Positions 26,838 to 63,517 of a stretch of 64,000 bases of DNA are shown here, in pieces; the first letter of the stretch is position 1, and the number at the start of each line of letters is the position of its first letter. This DNA is from Octopus sinensis (lineage: Eukaryota). Where the stretch lies: positions 16,226 through 80,225 of the forward strand of contig NW_021834790.1 in the NCBI RefSeq assembly GCF_006345805.1, written 5' to 3'. Both the position numbers and the translations under genes were made by a program. The notes beneath the pieces are model-generated. The model searched no databases. It had not been told where the DNA came from and saw only the letters and a list, made by a program, of their open reading frames with translations.

Positions 26838-27250
26838 AGGCGGCGAGCTGGCAGAATCGTTAGCACGCCGGGCGAAATGCTAAGCAGTATTTCGTCTGTC
26901 GCTACGTTCTGAGTTCAAATTCCGCCGAGGTCAACTTTGCCTTTCATCCTTTCGGGGTCGATTAAATAAGTACCAGTTACACACTGGGGTTGATATAATC
27001 GACTTAATCCCTTTGTCCTTGTTTGTCCTCTTTGTGTTTAGCCCCTTGTGGGTAGTAAAGAAATAGGTATTTCGTCTGCCGCTACGTTCTGAGTTCAAAT
27101 TCCGCCGAGGTCGACTTTGCCTTTCATCCTTTCGGAGTCGATTAAATAAGTACCAGTTGAACACTGAGGTCGATATAATCGACTTAATCCCTTTGTCTCT
27201 CCTTGTTTGTCCCCTCTGTATGTAGCCCCTTGTGGGCAGTAAAGAAATAG
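26838..27250 (+). mobile_element. SINE family A tandem dimer (second unit lacks the 5' head)
   Basis: The body from GTATTTCGTCTG onward is repeated. One TSD, GTCTATGATATAT, brackets the pair. Confidence 0.85.
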
Positions 27251-27975
27251 GGGTCTATGATATATGTATACAATATAAAAAGATTCAGGGGGTACCCAAA
27301 ACATTTGTCAGGAGTTACATGTACTATTTACAACTGCTTGGTTCAGTTCCATGCGACTTAATTAATTTTATGTGATACGAACTATGATGTGGTCAGTAAA
27401 TTGTAAAGTGATATCTCGAATGCATAGTACTGCCAACATATTCTAGCTGGATGAAATATAAGCTGAACTGTCAACTGCTACCTGTTAAACTGTATATTAT
27501 TTTAACAACATAAGGTGGTGCATAAGCCGTGTGTTATTCTAACAACGTAGCATGACATATCAACTATGCTGTTACTTCCCAACTCATTCGCTATCGTATT
27601 TAAATGAGAAGATATGATATTTTTGATATTTAACCTCTGTAATGTGAAACCGAAATCGAATATGATATCATGATTGTTTAGTTACGAGACGTCACAATTT
27701 TTACAAGCATTCTGTAATTTCTAAATTATTTTCTGTAATATCAAGATTGAGTTGTTATATTTATTTAAATGACGGTATGAAATCGAAACCCCTGTGTAAC
27801 GTACCAAGACTATAACCAGATGGCGCTAAATAAATACAGATGTAACACCTTAGATCAGGGATACAACAGAAGATTTTGGATTCCTGTTGTGTATTTAGCT
27901 ACAGTATGACCGAGCGCATATTCTCACGTTTGAGCCTTATTGGACATACTTGCGTATGTATATGTATTGTAATAT

Positions 27976-38287: not shown

Positions 38288-38329
<42 letters not shown>

Positions 38330-39572
38330 TAATTAAGGGCTAAAGAGGGTTATTCTAAAGCCAAATACACTGTTTATCCACTTATAATCCGCTTGTTACA
38401 GGAAAATTGAAACTGAAAACGGGCAACTAACTTTAGAAAATTTAAATTTCGTTATCTCTATATTGAATCAATTTCGGACTTAATCTTATAAAAAGATATA
38501 TTCTTCTTCAGTAGAAATTTCGATGGGATATAAATAAAATACTCACGTATGATCATGGAAAAAGCACAAGCTAAAAACATAACTACACTTGAGTACATCA
38601 TTTATATCTAAAAATAAAATTCTTTGGTCAGCCTCAGAAAACAACGTCCAGACCTTTCGCGCTACAATGTAATGTTACCAGTCCTCCTGTAGCAAGCATC
38701 GAGTTTACTACTAAGCAATATAGGATGAAGTCCCTTACTCTACAGCAAAGGAATTCATCAGGAAGCGTGGGCAGTATATTTAAAAACCGTTACGGTTTGC
38801 AATATACATCATAATTAAGGGCTAAGAGGGTTATTCTAAAGCCAAAATCATGTTTTATCCACTTATAATCCGCTTGTTACAGAAAATTGAAACTGAAAAC
38901 GGGCAACTACACCTTAGAAATTTAAATTTCGTTATCTCTATATGAATCAATTTCGGACTTAATCTTATAAAAAGATATATTCTTCTTCAGTAGAAATTCG
39001 ATGGATATAAATAAAATACTCACGTATGATCATGGAAAAAGCACAAGCTAAAAACATAACTACACTTGAGTACATCATTATATCTAAAAATAAAAATTCT
39101 TTGGTCAGCCTCAGAAAACAACGTCCAGACCTTTCGCCGCTACAAATTGTAATGGTTACCAGTCCTCCTGTAGCAAGCATCGAGTTTACTACTAAGCAAT
39201 ATAGGATGAAGTCCCTTACTCTACAGCAAAGGAATTCATCAGGAAGCGTGGGCAGTATATTTAAAAAAACCGTTACGGTTGCAATATATCATTATAATTA
39301 AGGGCTAAAGAGGGTTATTCTAAAGCCAAATACACTGTGTTATCCACTTATAATCCGCTTGTTACAGGAAAATTGAAACTGAAAACGGGCAACTAACCTT
39401 AGAAAATTTAAATTCGTTTATCTCTATATTGAATCAATTTCGGACTTAATCTATAAAAAGATATATTCCTTCTTCAGTAGAATTTCGATGGGATATAAAT
39501 AAAATACTCACGTATGATCATGGAAAAAGCACAAGCTAAAAACATAACTACACTGAGACATCATTATATCTC
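38330..39572 (-). repeat. ~484-bp tandem repeat (about 2.5 units), each unit with a hammerhead motif; retrozyme/PLE pLTR-like
   Basis: TAATTAAGGGCT recurs at ~38330, 38812 and 39296. (TA)n flanks both sides. Confidence 0.85.
38455..38517 (-). ncRNA. Type I hammerhead ribozyme motif (repeated at 38935-38996 and 39421-39483)
   Basis: Minus strand: TTTCTA-CTGAAGAA-(G)GA..ATCTT/AAGAT..TCC-GAAA-TTGA T TCAA-TA^-TAGAGA. Stem I has 6 bp and stem III is palindromic. Confidence 0.6.
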
Positions 39573-39580
39573 AATATATA

Positions 39581-48660: not shown

Positions 48661-49087
48661 TGAGTGTTTCATTTGTTCCAAGGCGACACAATGTCTCGAA
48701 TGTCGCCAAGTATTTCTAACCGAAAGTAATATTCAGGCATAACATCTTTTCTTATGGCAACAAACCATTGTTCGTGATTTCTCAGCATATACCATTGATT
48801 GACTGTTTTGTACAATAAAGTGAATGGAATTGTATATAGCAGCAGTAAATCTCATACATTGCGTGTTGAATGAGAGAAAATTTAAAAACTTCGTAATAAG
48901 TGATAAGTGAGCAAAAAGTGAACAAAAATATTTTGTGTGAATCCTATGCATATGTTTATAATTCCTAGGTTTTAAATTCAAATTTCTAATCCCAGCAAAT
49001 ATTATAAAGAAGTGGTGATCTTCCTTGATTTATCTGCTACCATTAATGGAAAGTATTGCAAGCAATTCTCGAAACTATTTCGCGATT

Positions 49088-49722
49088 GTGATACTACATC
49101 TTTCGCTTGCTCATGTGTGGGATAACGCATCTTTGGTTTGCTCACGAGTGAGATACCACATCTTTCGCTTGCTCACAAGTGAGATACCGCATCTTTCGCT
49201 TGCTCACGAGTGAGATACCACATCTTTCGCTTGCTCACGAGTGAGATACCACATCCTTCGCTTGCTCACGAGTGAGATACTGCATCTTTCGCTTGTTCAC
49301 GAGTGAGATATCACATTCTTCGGTTGCTCACGAGCGGGATACTGCATCTTTCATTTGCTCACGAGTGAGATACCACATCCTTCGCTTGCTCACGAGTGAG
49401 ATACCACATTCTTCGGTTGCTCACGAGCGGGATACTGCATCTTTCATTTGCTCACGAGTGAGATACCACATCCTTCGCTTGCTCACGAGTGAGATACCAC
49501 ATTCTTCGCTTGCTCACGAGTGAGATACCACATCTTTCGCTTGCTCACGAGTGAGATACCACATCCTTCGCTTGCTCACGAGTGAGATACCACATCCTTC
49601 GCTTGCTCACGAGTGAGATACTGCATCTTTCATTTGCTCACGAGTGAGATACCACATCCTTCGCTAGCTCACGAGTGAGATACCGCATCTTTCATTCGCT
49701 CACGAGCGGGATACTGCATTTT
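49088..49722. repeat. 31-bp minisatellite, about 20 copies
   Basis: Unit GAGTGAGATACCACATCTTTCGCTTGCTCAC, head-to-tail with no spacers. Confidence 0.95.
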
Positions 49723-56988: not shown

Positions 56989-57026
<38 letters not shown>

Positions 57027-57248
57027 GAAATATTAAAATAACTAAGTCTCTCTAAAAGAGAACAGCGGCAGCGTTCCCGGAAAATAATAGTTATCGCCAT
57101 ACTAATGGCATTCTTATAAAAATAAGAAAAAACTGCCCGCTTATTAGCTCCATGAGGCCATCGCCTTAAGTTAGCTATTTGATACACAAACTGTATCCAT
57201 ATAACCTTCGAACAAGGAGGTCAGTCGCTCCACACTACTTGACCGGCA

Positions 57249-57290
57249 GCTACAGACGCGTTTCGGAGTATTGCCCCTTTTCAATGCAGC
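57249..57290 (-). ncRNA. Minimal type I hammerhead ribozyme, U3-A8 core variant
   Basis: Minus strand: GCTGCA-TTGAAAA-GGGG CAATA CTCC-GAAA-CGCG-TC^-TGTAGC. Stem I has 6 bp, stem II 4 bp, stem III is palindromic and the site is GUC. Confidence 0.7.
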
Positions 57291-57551
57291 GTAGCCAGCC
57301 AGTAGGTGTCGCTTCCTAAATCTTTATTATGATTATAAAAATCTTACAGAGATAGTACATTACAATACAAAACATAATACAAAAAGTTTACGTTGTTCGT
57401 TTGATATTTACATATGTTGATTATTGATTATGATACTAGACTTTACTTTTCTCCTTTTTTTTTTTTTTAAATTAAAATGATTTTGGCCAGCTAGGTAATC
57501 ACAGTCAGGATTCTTACCCGACAGCCTAAGAGCCAGAGACTATTTCTCCCT

Positions 57552-60500
57552 TCATGATGACCAAGCAGGGTTACTCACACCCACCTTTTTTATCACATCC
57601 TTCCATCGATTCACATACTTTTTCTGTGTCAGGTTCCTCTTCTCTAAATCCATCTTGCTCTTTAGATGGTATCTGAAGTATTTTAACATACCATATCCAG
57701 AGACAAAGGTCCTGACACCAAACCTTCCAATCTAGTTCTCCACACACACTCTTTCAGTACTGCCACCGTACAGTGAAAACAAGCCTCACCTTCCTTTGAG
57801 AGTCCAGCTGGCGGTATCATCTTTATATAGAACCAGCCGATAGCTGTACTCGTCCCAGATGCGACAACACGTGTTCTACGTAACTTATTAAGCCTGACAG
57901 CTCCTGACAATGTACAAAAGCGTGCTGGACGGTTTCATCGTCCAACCCACATCTTGGACATGTCGGTGGCACTGACATTCCATGCCTATATAACTTATCG
58001 CGAACAGGTAGAGCATTCCTATAGCACTGCCAAGTCAGGGATTTTTGGTAATTGTCCAAATACCCCGGCTTGAAAGTCTTCTTAAACAGGTCGGATAGTT
58101 GATCCTCATCGAACCCCAGAGCCCCTCTTAGGACGTCGTCATTTTTTGCCTCTACCATCCTTCTATAAAATGTCGAGGTGGTATTCCCGCAGCCGGCTTT
58201 GCCTATCTTGTGGATCAGCCAGAGTGCCTGTCGGCACTCTTTCTGCCATAAAGTCAGGTTCCGTCTTTTAATGAAACCGGGTTTAAATCTCTCCATAGAG
58301 TCCGGTTGCGGGAAGAAGATCTGCCAGCGGACTCCACACCTTATCACCTTCCAGGTGAAACCAGAGATGTCTCAGTCTCAGCGCATGCCTGCGCATCATT
58401 AACCAAGGCATCCCCAGCCCACCCTTTAGTGGTCCTGGCAACACACGGAGCGCCTTACAAGTGGCTTTCCTCCCTTCCACAAAAAGCGGAAAAGGAGTCG
58501 ATCCAACTTGCTTAGCCACAAATCGGGGCAAGGCACGACAGTCAGGCGATAGGTGATTACAGATGCTATAAACACCTGTACCACCTCCGCCCTCCCTTTC
58601 AAGGAAAGATGCCTTCCGGACCACTCCCAAACTATGGCTTCTACCTTGGTCACTACCTCGCTCCAATTTTTCTCCGTCTGGGAGTCTGAACCAAACCAAA
58701 CTCCAAGCAATTTAACAGGACCATCTGTCCAGTGTCCAACAACACTGGACGATATCGGCTTGTTCCTCCAGGTGCCGAGGCGCAAACCAGTGGACTTGTC
58801 CTTGTTAACTTTTGCCCCAGCCACCGCTTCGTATCTTCGGAGAGCACCTTCTACACGAGTTAGTTGTGCTTCGTTGGACACGATGAAGGTGACGTCATCC
58901 GCATACGCAGAAACAGACTTACCGCATCCGATTTCATTAGGATTGCATCTCACCGTCTCCAACTTCCGCAGCAATGGCTCAAGAGCCAAAACGTACAGGA
59001 GAGGGGACAAGGGACATCCTTGACGAACTGAACGCTTAATCGAAAACGGTTCCGTTAAGTAACCGTTTATCTGGACTGTGGACTTGATACCGCTGTACAT
59101 AGCTGATATCCACCCGCGAAAGTCAGGACCTAGCCCAGCCGCTTCGAGAACCGTCGCCAGGTACTGATGATCTACCCTATCAAATGCTTTACTTTGGTCT
59201 AAATGGACCAATGCCCCTCCTTTGCCGGCTAATTGCCCAACCCTGTCTATAGTGTAGCGTAGAAGGTGAAGATTATCTTCGATCGACCTGCCTGGGATTG
59301 CACATGTCTGTGCCTTTCCGACAAGTTTTTCCATGACGACCTTCAACCTTTCTGCTAACACCTTGGCCAAAATCTTTAACTCTACATTAAGTAGAGTTAT
59401 GGGCCTATAATTACTAATATTATCCCCCTTGCTCGGGTCTTTCTGGATCAGCGTCACAACTCCCCGGCTCACAGAACTGGGAATCCTCCCATTCTGTTGC
59501 CAGTTTGCGTAGACGCTTGCCAGTATGTCCCCGAACAAGTCCGGCATACAACAATAAAACTCATAGGGCAGACCATCCAGTCCCGGCGACTTTTCCCGGG
59601 CGCATTCAGCCAAACCCCTCTTACCTCCGCGGGAGTAATCGGTCCTTCACAGCGTTCCGCTCTGCTTGGCGAGAGCCGAGGCCCACCAGCTAGGAAGTTC
59701 TGTAAGTCCTCCCCTCGCTCGAGTGGATCGCCCTCCCCAAACAACCGAGCGAAATGCTGTTGAAAGACCTTCTGTATCTCCTCCTGTCCATAGATTTTGC
59801 GTCCCTGTTCGTCAGTTAAAGACTTAATAGAGGACTTTTTGCCCTTCTGACTCTCCACACGACGTGCCCATCCGGCAACATTAATACCTTCTCGTTTCAC
59901 TGCACGTAGCTTAGCTCTGACTCTACATCCTTCATGCTTGGCATTGAGGTGACGGTACAAGATCGTTCTCTCTGCTAACACTCTAGATGCACAGCCAGAT
60001 CCCATTGCCTCGTCTAAGTTCTTAACTAAATCGCCCTCTATTCTAGTCCTATCTAAACTTAGCTGGTTGCTAAATCTAATGGACTCCAAACGGATGGCTC
60101 TTTTGAGGCGATCCACCATCTATTATTAATGATGGTTCCACATAATGCCCTCTGGACTAATTCCATAATCCGGTTACGGAAAGCTTCACAAGCCAAAATA
60201 GACTTGTTCATTTTCCAGTATCCGGGTCCCTGTCTATGGCATTTATCTACATGTACCTCACACGTCACTAATTTGTGATCCGTGTAAGGCACAATACAAA
60301 TTGTGGACAGCTAATGCTATTCCTATCTCGTTCTTTAACAAATACCCTATCTATATACGATCTGCGTGAGCCGTCATTGTTACTCCACGTCCACTGTGGA
60401 ATGCTCGGCTCATCCATTCGAAACCGATCTACTAGATTAAAGCTCGTCAGTAGACCCTTAAGGCAAGGATTCCCCCTTCTATCAGACGAGCCCACACTAT

Positions 60501-60941
60501 CTATCCGCGCATCGATGATAGTGTTGAAATCCCCTACCAATACTACCGTTTTAGACGTCACTAGAAAGTGCTCCAAGTTCCGATAAAACCAGTCTGCCTA
60601 CCCTCATTAGGAGCATAAACAGCTACCAACCTGAAGGACTGCTTACTTACGTGAGTTACATCGAGGACAACCAGCCTACCTTCTGGGTCCATAAAGACAG
60701 TACTTACCTGTAAGTCCAAGTTCTTCCTGATAAGGACTGCCACGCCTGCACTTCCTCCTCGGCTAGGAGAAATAAATTTCTCGTAACCATTGAGAAGATG
60801 CGAGAACGCTTGGGTTCCTCTCATCTTGGACTCGGTGACAATGGCTACATCTATTCTGTGTGTCCTGAGGTCGTCCAGCAAGCAAGCCTGTTTCCATTTC
60901 GACCCCATTCCACGCACATTTATACAGCCCAACTTAATCAT
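57552..60941 (-). CDS. ORF2: apurinic-like endonuclease, reverse transcriptase and C-terminal zinc finger (broken by about 8 frameshifts in this sequence)
   Basis: INVRG, VYAPN, GDFN, IDRVF and TDHK (APE). KSPGLDGLPYEFY, YRPITLLN, KAFDRVDH, RQGCPLSPLLY and YADD (RT). GGLG and CPRC...ETVQHAFVHC (zinc finger). Confidence 0.9.
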
Positions 60942-60961
60942 CGATGAATGAAGAAAGTTTG

Positions 60962-62443
60962 TTACTTACGGTTGTGAGAGGGAGCATGGCAGCTTTTGTC
61001 TGCCTGCTTCCCCACACTCTCCGTTGTTGCTGGGCATTTAACCGGCGTTGCCACCGGGCTCTGGGATGGAGTGGCTGCCGGGCTAATATTCAATTTTCCA
61101 GCTATCACCTCTTGTGTGACATCTTTAATCAGGTTGTCCCTCACGTGTAGTTGGAAGAGTCTCTCCTTCCATTCCTCCTCTCCAACCTTCGCATACCTCC
61201 AATCCGGGTTTTTTTCCGATGATTTGAAACATTTTATGTTTGGTTTCGCCTTTATGTACCAAACTACTCTCTCGTTTTTTGTGTTATAAGCAATGCACCT
61301 ATCGGTTTTTTTGAATCCTTTTAAAGTTGGGGGCTGGGGTTTAATGAAATGCTGGCCTACAAAGTAGTGCCAGCGGGGTGGGATTGGATAATTTTTTTGT
61401 GTTGTCTCTGCGTTTGTTTTCTTTTTGTTTGGGGTGGGGAGTCCGGGGTATTGGATTTCTTCCTTTGTTTGGTTACAGTCGTATATTCCATTACTTCCAG
61501 TTCTTTTCCATTTGATAAATTATTTTCCACCTCGTTTTCGTTTTCGCTTTGTTTTCCATTCATTTTCTTTTCCTCCTTTTGACTTTCATTTTGCTTTTTC
61601 CGGGTATTCTCTTTTGTTGTTGCTGTGATGTCTGCTTTGTTCTCCACAGCGGTTTGAATGGGGGCATTAACGGGTTTTTTCTTTTTGCACTCTGAGCGGA
61701 CGTGACCCTTCTGCCCACATTTGAAACATCTGGGCCTACGTCCCTCAACCGATACCCGCGCAGTGTGTCCATCCCCCACGAAGACCCTGTCTGGCAAACT
61801 CTCCAGCGTTGCATTGTCAGCTTGAACGATCATTTCAAGCTGCTGACCTTTCCAAAATTTTGCCTCTTTCATCCTCATGTTTAAAATGTTTAATTTCTCT
61901 TCTACGTCGAATACGACCGCTGTTGCTGCCCACATTACATCGTAACCTGTTGGTATATCCTCTATTGTTATCTTAGCTGTTCTGCGCCCTAAGTACGTGG
62001 GCAGCAACAGGATGTCTGCACTCTTCAACGTTTGAGTTGAAATTTCCTTCGCTATGCTAGCCGACTCGAAATGCGCTTCAATAGTAGCGCTTCTCACTCC
62101 TCGGCCAACATAGCGAACCTTGTTCCAAATTGGTGCCATGCACCGTTCTACCAATTCATTTCTTACATCTGCAATCTTTTTTTCCTTAATATTATATACC
62201 TTATAAATTACCGTCTTCTCACGGATTGCTTGTAAGGTGTCAGGGGGCGGTATTATTCTCGTTTCTTCTCCATTCCTTTGTATGAACTTTCTGAACTTGA
62301 AGAGATCCTCCATTGTTACTTCCCAGTTCTATAACATTGCCTCCAACGGCTTCCGAAAAACTTTGTTTCTCCTTTGTATCCTTTTGCTTTATAACTTCTC
62401 CCATCTCGGGAAAATCAGAATTTGACGTTAAGTCAAGATCCAT
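60962..62443 (-). CDS. ORF1: gag-like nucleic-acid-binding protein with a CCHC zinc knuckle (2 frameshifts)
   Basis: CFKCGQKGHVRSEC. Three frame-shifted segments join from MDLDL... (62443) to ...SHNRK* (60962), ending 20 bp before the ORF2 start. Confidence 0.8.
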
Positions 62444-62968
62444 AATAAAATGCAAGTGACTTGTCACAAGAGACAAGATAAAAATTAAATCCACACTGAA
62501 TTAAAGTTCATATATAAAAAGAAATTTTCTACCCCGAAGGGCGAAAATTACTTTGTTTCACAAGTTAATACTCCAAAAATTGTACGTGTAAATCCAGAAC
62601 AGAACGAACTAACATAACAGCTTACAGCGTAAAATAATCCGACGTAATCCAAGGAAAATCAGTAGGTGTCGCTTCCGACAATCTCTGTTCGATGGTTTTA
62701 TTTACCTAGTTTCGGTGGAATACATCCACTTGTTTTCAATAATAGAATATTAAAATAACTAAGTCTCTCTAAAAGAGAACAGCGGCAGCGTTCCGGAAAA
62801 TAATAGTTATCGCCATACTAATATGGCATTCTTATAAAATAAAGAAAAAAGCTGCCCGCTTATTAGCTCCATGAGGCCATCGCCTTAAGTTAGCTATTTG
62901 ATACACAAACTGTATCCATATAACCTTCGAACAAGGGAGGTCAGTCGCTCCACACTACTTGACCGGCA

Positions 62969-63011
62969 GCTACAGACGCGTTTTCGGAGTATTGCCCCTT
63001 TTCAATGCAGC
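62969..63011 (-). ncRNA. Hammerhead motif, unit 2 copy
   Basis: Same as 57249-57290 with one extra A in the GAAA run. Confidence 0.6.
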
Positions 63012-63129
63012 GTAGCCAGCCAGTAGGTGTCGCTTCCGACAATCTCTGTTCGATGGTTTTATTTACCTAGTTTCGGTAAATAAAACCATCGAACAGAGTT
63101 GTCGGAAGCGAACACCTACTGCTGGCTAC

Positions 63130-63170
63130 GCTGCATTGAAAGGGGCAATACTAAGAAACGCGTCTGTACT
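63130..63170 (+). ncRNA. Hammerhead motif in the inverted copy, damaged
   Basis: GCTGCA-TTGAAA-GGGGCAATACTAA-GAAACGCGTC-TGTAC; stem II is disrupted. Confidence 0.45.
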
Positions 63171-63517
63171 GCCGGTCAAGTAGTGGGGAGCGACTGACCT
63201 CCCTTTTCGAAGGTTATATGGATACAGTTTGTGTACAAATAGCTAACTTAGGCGATGGCCTCATGGAGCTAATAAGCGGGCAGCTTTTTTTCTTATTTTA
63301 TAAGAAATGCCATATTAGTATGGCGATAACTATTATATTATATATATATATATATATGATTTGTTTTACGCATGTAGTATTTATTGATCTCCTCTCTATC
63401 AATGTGTTGTTTGGCATAATGTTTTGTATGTATGTATACAATATATATATATGTCCATGTTATGCATGTACTTATTTACATATATGTATGTATGCATGTA
63501 TATATATATGTATGTAT

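Follow-up and report, generated by a model that had tools for sequence, protein, structure and literature searches.

Probable targeting of a hammerhead-bearing, Penelope-type retrozyme by a young LINE family in Octopus sinensis

Structure of the insertion locus

The sequence analysed was a 64,000-nucleotide stretch of the Octopus sinensis genome (RefSeq assembly GCF_006345805.1, contig NW_021834790.1, positions 16,226 to 80,225 of the forward strand; hereafter the window), which carries a long interspersed nuclear element (LINE) inserted into a 361-bp repeat with a predicted hammerhead ribozyme. The LINE belongs to a young family whose copies were very probably inserted repeatedly, by targeting, at one fixed site of this repeat, a non-coding Penelope-type retrozyme, with co-mobilisation possibly adding some of the loci.

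The features of the locus are listed in Table 1. The 17-nt target is found three times in the window, with no fourth match at up to three mismatches (chance mean 0.07). The first two copies bracket the LINE as a perfect 17-bp target-site duplication (TSD), whereas the third (63021-63037) is uninterrupted and lies one 361-bp period beyond the 5' TSD copy. A first-pass annotation, made from the letters alone, had described a complete 5.3-kb element encoding an apurinic/apyrimidinic endonuclease (APE) and a reverse transcriptase (RT), flanked by a perfect TSD and followed by a unit that retains the undisturbed site. The insertion, its duplication and the intact site were borne out; the element is complete in length, but its open reading frames (ORFs) are broken by about six frameshifts. 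The surrounding "tandem repeat" of that annotation does have a 361-bp period, but it comprises only about two units plus an inverted arm and, far from being a satellite, is an insertion of a dispersed retroelement into (TA)n.

Table 1. Features of the LINE insertion and the flanking retrozyme pieces (window coordinates)
Feature	Position	Strand	Remarks
Partial retrozyme unit downstream of LINE	57021..57299	-	unit positions 1-282; 97% to unit (blastn); 3' end joins (TA)n
Minimal type I hammerhead core (predicted)	57255..57284	-	U3-A8 variant; GGGG/CUCC helix II; palindromic CGCG helix III
TSD, 3' copy	57300..57316	-	exact 17-mer
Full-length APE/RT LINE	57317..62659	-	5,343 bp; without poly(A) tail; terminates AATAAAGATTTA
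ORF2 of window LINE	57823..60941	-	AP endonuclease, RT, zf-RVT; frameshifted in window copy
ORF1 of window LINE	60945..62313	-	single CCHC zinc knuckle; frameshifted in window copy, open in copy L061
TSD, 5' copy	62660..62676	-	exact 17-mer
Complete 361-bp retrozyme unit upstream of LINE	62660..63020	-	hammerhead core at 62975-63005
5'-truncated retrozyme unit (positions 305-361)	63021..63077	-	carries empty target 63021-63037
Inverted retrozyme arm	63075..63339	+	ends at unit ~224 beside (TA)n; degenerate hammerhead core 63136-63164

Genome-wide survey of insertion sites

Both ends of the LINE were searched against the genome, and 50 regions were examined. The target site adjoined 42 of the 51 copies with a 3' end and 41 of the 44 copies at ≥96% identity; targets make up about 5e-7 of the genome. 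The 34 occupied loci, distributed over 14 chromosome-scale contigs and smaller ones, differ in their outer flanks except for one pair with 100% identity over 1,048 bp, leaving at least 33 independent loci. This pair consists of L094 (small contig C3974, one LINE) and L103-L104 (contig C8, two tandem LINEs) and is probably an allelic or duplicated contig; two further locus pairs have 78-93% similar, repeat-like flanks. Since insertions at the same base recur with different outer flanks, neither random insertion nor a single duplication can account for the pattern. The suggestion of the first-pass annotation that the family targets a Penelope-derived or retrozyme hammerhead repeat is thereby supported, and neither of the outcomes that it had named as refuting it, unrelated flanks or a common origin in one segmental duplication, was found. 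In published work, target specificity is recognised by more than 20% of flanks lying in one repeat with a fixed junction and a TSD (PMC4494074), for which the count here is 42/51.

That the pattern merely reflects an assembly artefact or one segmental duplication is hardly credible. The assembly is indel-rich, several copies lie on small unplaced contigs and the L094/C8 flanks are identical, but the copies on the 14 chromosome-scale contigs differ in retrozyme architecture as well as in outer flanks, and in the copies typed both flanks of a LINE match one and the same retrozyme subtype (see below). This reading is thus already largely refuted.

Among the three exceptions at ≥96% identity, one copy has its 5' end in the target and an unrelated 3' flank; the other two are truncated, lie 1.9% from the young family and sit at CATACTTATAC and (TA)n, respectively. 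The 3' fragment L084, which fell below the alignment threshold and outside the 51 copies, is flanked by sequence other than the target. Three copies that look 5'-truncated (L065, L091 and L092) end at assembly gaps and were not counted as such. A further 20 target sites followed by a non-G base proved to be variants of the repeat and contained neither a LINE nor a SINE (short interspersed nuclear element) nor any other insert. One short-read contig reaches from the LINE end 17 letters into the target, an overlap too short to bridge the junction.

The target repeat

The 361-bp unit is dispersed in the genome, where at least 1,413 exact target sites are empty. At 40 empty loci on contig C1, it formed short tandems, was present in both orientations (inverted arm) in 31 cases and joined (TA)n at 3' ends close to unit position 221 or 282; these two end points beside (TA)n recur in occupied and empty loci alike. 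Partial tandems, an inverted 5' arm and (TA)n junctions constitute the layout described for Penelope-like elements (PLEs) (PMC8557442). Three subtypes, A, B and C, are all common, being represented by 49, 14 and 27 of 92 empty sites.

The hammerhead of the unit reads UUGAAAA-GGGG-CAAUA-CYCC-GAAA-CGCG-UC and is closed by a long helix I; this core pattern fits 126 of the 146 copies of the hammerhead motif (103 in two main forms). Its U3-A8 core change has been reported for minimal type I hammerheads from Schistosoma PLEs (PMC4209133), and an Rfam scan of the window at the gathering score returned no hammerhead match. The type I hammerhead that the first-pass annotation had placed about 10 bp from the insertion site is indeed 10 nt away, as measured from proximal helix I; the extended helix I is, however, predicted to include the 3' half of the TSD as its paired distal end, and the motif is a U3-A8 variant below the Rfam gathering score. 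After insertion of the LINE the downstream hammerhead remains whole, and its predicted cut falls after the C at 57255, 62 nt beyond the LINE end. A second hammerhead-like motif at unit positions ~282-318 was rejected, as it did not fold as a hammerhead.

The unit size, the hammerhead, the tandem and inverted layout and the (TA)n ends all fit a non-coding Penelope-type retrozyme, whose self-cleavage is predicted. Autonomous GIY-YIG PLEs of the same genome carried a U3-A8 minimal hammerhead in 12 of 30 loci examined (of 150 listed), and the six that were read all end on (TA)n. Neither homology of their pseudo-long terminal repeats (pLTRs) to the 361-bp unit nor an autonomous PLE partner was found in these 30 of the 150 listed loci.

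Young GIY-YIG PLEs are abundant (L197, L199, L200, L209, L212-L215, L218, L219, L221, L222); they have a CxxxxCxxC linker, listed frames of up to ~781 aa, a minimal hammerhead of the U3-A8 type close to the 3' end, and junctions on (TA)n. L209 also contains, at 3037-3250, a related retrozyme family that is 82% identical to the unit and likewise ends at position 282 on (TA)n.

Targeted insertion versus co-mobilisation

Because the retrozyme is itself mobile, composite spread is conceivable. In its full form, a LINE of the U1 small nuclear RNA (snRNA) type described below would have entered a retrozyme on one or a few occasions, a 5.7-kb RNA of unit plus LINE would have been cut by two hammerheads and copied by Penelope-like machinery, and conversion or polishing would have blurred the haplotypes. 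As an account of the whole distribution this is improbable, although hitchhiking may be the source of a minority of loci.

The history of the LINEs and that of their hosts were compared using 32 of the 38 full copies having both flanks. The LINE distance between A- and B-subtype hosts was 0.68% (0.61 and 0.72 within subtypes) and that of the flanks 3.17%; in the closest A-B pair, the LINEs differed by 0.15% and the flanks by 3.96%. Flanks that are 4-5 times more diverged than the LINEs they enclose speak against joint copying. On a LINE tree of 36 rows (the 39 full copies minus 3 that had no subtype), label A required 10 changes (12.3 when shuffled) and label B 9 (10.2), and the approximately unbiased (AU) test rejected a clade of either label (p 0.0003 for A, 2e-6 for B). 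Moreover, an old LINE haplotype linked over >3 kb was found in A, B and C hosts, a pattern that short-read polishing would not create.

Copies that are 5'-truncated at the target serve as a control for hitchhiking (PMC4494074). One such copy (L070, truncated at 3299) begins exactly after a full TSD, another (L083) is a 68-bp LINE copy after a 10-bp partial TSD, and LINE-TSD-LINE tandems occur at two loci. In all but one copy, both TSD copies match the G/A allele of the locus (read by eye). The 5' end is resolved in 39 in-target copies, and in none of these does the LINE break off internally and pass into DNA other than the retrozyme, as expected of a Penelope-type end, although empty arms are short: the 71 arms in the 40 empty loci have a median length of 425 bp, the longest measures 3.5 kb, and all fall short of 5.7 kb. 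Many occupied loci, in addition, have kept empty units. Resolved truncated 5' ends at ≥96% identity numbered three in the retrozyme (two at the TSD, one with an upstream deletion) and two outside, all small numbers.

Several observations weigh against targeting as the full explanation, and some of them are what co-mobilisation would lead one to expect. Copies in the target are mostly full-length (36/39, vs 1/8 outside, a comparison confounded by age), and just two truncated copies have a TSD. Fifteen of 43 copies lie in six multiply occupied loci, a clustering far above chance. An array on contig C3, a Penelope-style palindrome, has 5/5 sites filled, compared with 2.8% occupancy (p ~6e-7), and the AU test rejects a clade of its copies weakly (p 0.045); the five copies, however, have no private variant in common, contrary to an origin by joint amplification. 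The distances between LINEs rise with those between their flanks (Mantel test, rho 0.38, p 0.0008; A and B only, 0.23, p 0.009), and the four labels jointly cluster on the LINE tree (9/200 shuffles as low). Gene conversion or short-read polishing among 99% identical copies could scramble LINE haplotypes. Repeated insertion by targeting is still the reading that we consider very probable.

The C3 array (C3:72499000-72532000, L099-L102) is a 28-kb palindrome in which all five target sites hold a full LINE, with at least three LINE haplotypes and with unit variants alternating.

Coding capacity and affiliation of the LINE

The window LINE encodes an ORF1 with a zf-CCHC domain and an ORF2 with Exo_endo_phos, RVT_1 and zf-RVT domains. 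Both ORFs are open in copy L061, with 512 codons (stop to stop) for ORF1 and 1,132 aa for ORF2, and short-read contigs carry an additional base at or near five of the frame breaks of the window copy; the breaks are therefore probably assembly errors or specific to that copy. L061 ORF2 contains PF03372, PF00078 and PF13966, and the top matches of the endonuclease among solved structures are L1 endonucleases. L061 ORF1 has zf-CCHC and no Transposase_22, which makes it a Type I (RRM/zf-CCHC) ORF1; the distinction between this type and Transposase_22 is used as a criterion for the Tx1 clade (PMC5203782). ORF1 also resembles a ZCCHC3-type RNA-binding cluster (0.90), which is taken as no more than a lead. 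The nearest named protein relative is an Argonauta protein (63% identity in the RT), with Ciona pol-like and Zepp far weaker and no named Tx1 protein among the matches. Judged by its domains and insertion habit, the family likely belongs to the Tx1 clade. The first 140 nt of the LINE contain no conspicuous ribozyme-like fold.

In one copy (L072:3454-3642), a 189-bp SINE-like insert splits the endonuclease region; this SINE-like repeat also comes after the end of a PLE in L200.

Older sister copies at U1 snRNA and related sites

Beyond the reach of the first-pass annotation, LINE copies that are 4-12% diverged lie outside the retrozyme. The 5'-truncated copy L086 has an upstream flank that matches the region upstream of an intact U1 gene and, downstream, a whole U1 gene from position 1 (Rfam, 125 bits). 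In L088, U1 nt 1-17 lie between two tandem LINE copies. L095 is headed by U1 nt 1-17 yet located at an unrelated ATACTT site, and is best understood as the off-target insertion of a transcript that had begun at the U1 start. The 3' junctions of all eight outside copies are on ATAC, ATAT or CATAC, resembling the U1 start. In a tree rooted on L095, the oldest retrozyme copies are mostly of subtype C.

Since the young copies lie at the retrozyme and their older sisters at U1 or ATAC-type sites, a recent switch of the lineage from U1 to the retrozyme is suggested. The U1 evidence is thin, however: of the 36 exact U1 17-mers, 20 were inspected, the element was present in the above cases alone, and only one of these is a clear U1-gene insertion in which both flanks could be recognised.

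A U1 gene cluster at C15:28.98-29.18 Mb (L086-L088, L181-L192) contains several decayed LINE relatives, 67-93% identical. The U1-headed copy in L095 is flanked by two inverted, complete U2 snRNA genes (L095:937-1130 and 7430-7623).

Possible mechanism of the suggested target change

The LINE would be inserted at the retrozyme site by its own endonuclease and RT through target-primed reverse transcription, with nicks at two positions separated by 17 nt, the arrangement also supposed for U1. Both targets give a 17-nt duplication, but they share the right-hand end only (CACAG/G in the retrozyme vs TACTG/G in U1, the slash marking the junction). When the endonucleases of two U1-linked copies were compared with those of retrozyme copies, three common changes were found (D23N, R26M and M84L), whereas residues 186-196, which align with the L1 hairpin loop, were identical. 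In the L1 endonuclease, selectivity is governed by this loop: loop grafts altered nicking, point mutations did not (PMC1950540).

In the mechanism that we propose, the LINE would borrow the transcription of its host element, formerly from the U1 promoter and now from the retrozyme. Its tail-less RNA would read through into the target, where the downstream hammerhead would cleave it 62 nt beyond the LINE, and would pair, through this read-through tail, with nicked target DNA. One stray insertion into a retrozyme could thus have re-aimed the lineage with little change of the endonuclease, and a leader from the upstream unit could account for 36 of 39 in-target copies being full-length. Pairing between RNA and target has been proposed for SART1 and R1Bm (PMC7265360) and for R2 (PMC5035012). 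Because the hairpin loop is unchanged and the endonuclease differences are few, re-aiming by the read-through tail after one stray insertion is favoured over a pure protein change, although we would give it slightly less than an even chance.

It is also possible, if rather doubtful, that targeting is real but that the switch from U1 was purely a change of protein (D23N, R26M, M84L or elsewhere in ORF2), without any role for read-through RNA or the hammerhead. This would agree with the separation of both U1-linked copies from the retrozyme copies by the three substitutions, with the second junction of L070, which falls on the same base although 5' RNA homology is lacking, and with the attribution of Tx1 target choice mainly to the endonuclease (PMC4494074). 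It is harder to reconcile with the identical hairpin loop, given that point mutations left nicking by the L1 endonuclease unaltered (PMC1950540), with the dissimilar first-nick contexts of the two targets, and with the two copies 1.9% from the young family that are still at ATAC/ATAT sites. This alternative concerns mechanism and is compatible with the targeting claim.

Combining the RNA-based steps above, we tentatively envisage that the LINE moved from U1 to the retrozyme with its endonuclease almost unchanged, that the ribozyme of the target forms its RNA ends and that the 62-nt tail finds the next target. The LINE might then parasitise a retrozyme that is itself a parasite of a Penelope element, a picture that we regard as possible and short of probable.

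Comparison with known systems

R2 encodes its own ribozyme; in the octopus system the ribozyme would belong to the target. Like the octopus LINE, R2, R1Bm and SART1 are site-specific and are thought to use co-transcription and RNA-target pairing (PMC5035012; PMC7265360), and for R2 the movement of the target has been tied to target-derived RNA sequence (PMC5035012). Their targets are rDNA or telomere repeats, unlike the retrozyme used here.

Targets recorded for the Tx1 clade include piggyBac, Mariner, Harbinger and long terminal repeat (LTR) elements, U2, U5, 5S and microsatellites (PMC4494074). The octopus LINE resembles Tx1L of Xenopus (in Tx1D), Tx1-Mar (Mariner-N4_AMi), Tx1-9_AMi (Harbinger), and Tx1-8_Crp and Tx1-4_AMi (LTR retrotransposons) in being an APE-type LINE that prefers an abundant mobile element; it also shares with these families tandem insertions and, in some of them, a U1-derived head (PMC4494074). 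It differs from them in using a single base of a hammerhead-bearing Penelope-type retrozyme and in having a U1-associated sister lineage 4-7% away within one genome. Insertion into snRNA genes is likewise known from Keno, a Tx1-clade element of U2 snRNA genes (PMC4494074), the older octopus copies using U1 +1 with a 17-nt duplication, and from Dada-U1, which is however a DNA transposon with 6-7-bp TSDs (PMC8869645).

Non-LTR retrozymes and PLEs with minimal hammerheads share with the octopus unit non-coding tandem units of 170-400 nt, a type I hammerhead with palindromic helix III and U3-A8 core, tandem and inverted insertions and a preference for (TA)n (PMC7229834; PMC4209133; bioRxiv 10.64898/2026.07.22.740005; PMC8557442). 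The accessible parts of this literature contain no LINE aimed at such a unit. A wider literature search, whose scope lay outside Repbase, most subscription papers and the target supplements of PMC4494074, likewise yielded neither a LINE directed at a hammerhead repeat nor a Tx1 element directed at U1.

Other repeats in the window

A 481-bp tandem repeat of 2.6 copies lies between (TA)n tracts at 38322-39578, in a layout that resembles another retrozyme or PLE remnant. A two-copy 180-bp repeat is present at 26887-27251, and a minisatellite at 49083-49714 consists of about 20 copies of a 31-bp unit.

Significance

The targeting of other transposons by Tx1 elements was already known; what appears to be new is a young LINE family very probably aimed at a ribozyme-bearing retrozyme, together with the suggested recent change from U1 to the retrozyme in one genome. 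Changes of target in site-specific LINEs are usually reconstructed across deep branches. Here both states lie 4-7% apart in a single genome and are separated by three endonuclease differences, so that protein-driven and RNA-driven retargeting can be distinguished. If the RNA tail does set the site, this would be a natural route to the re-aiming of an AP-endonuclease retrotransposon. Ribozyme-bearing retrozymes, very probably, join the list of safe-harbour targets.

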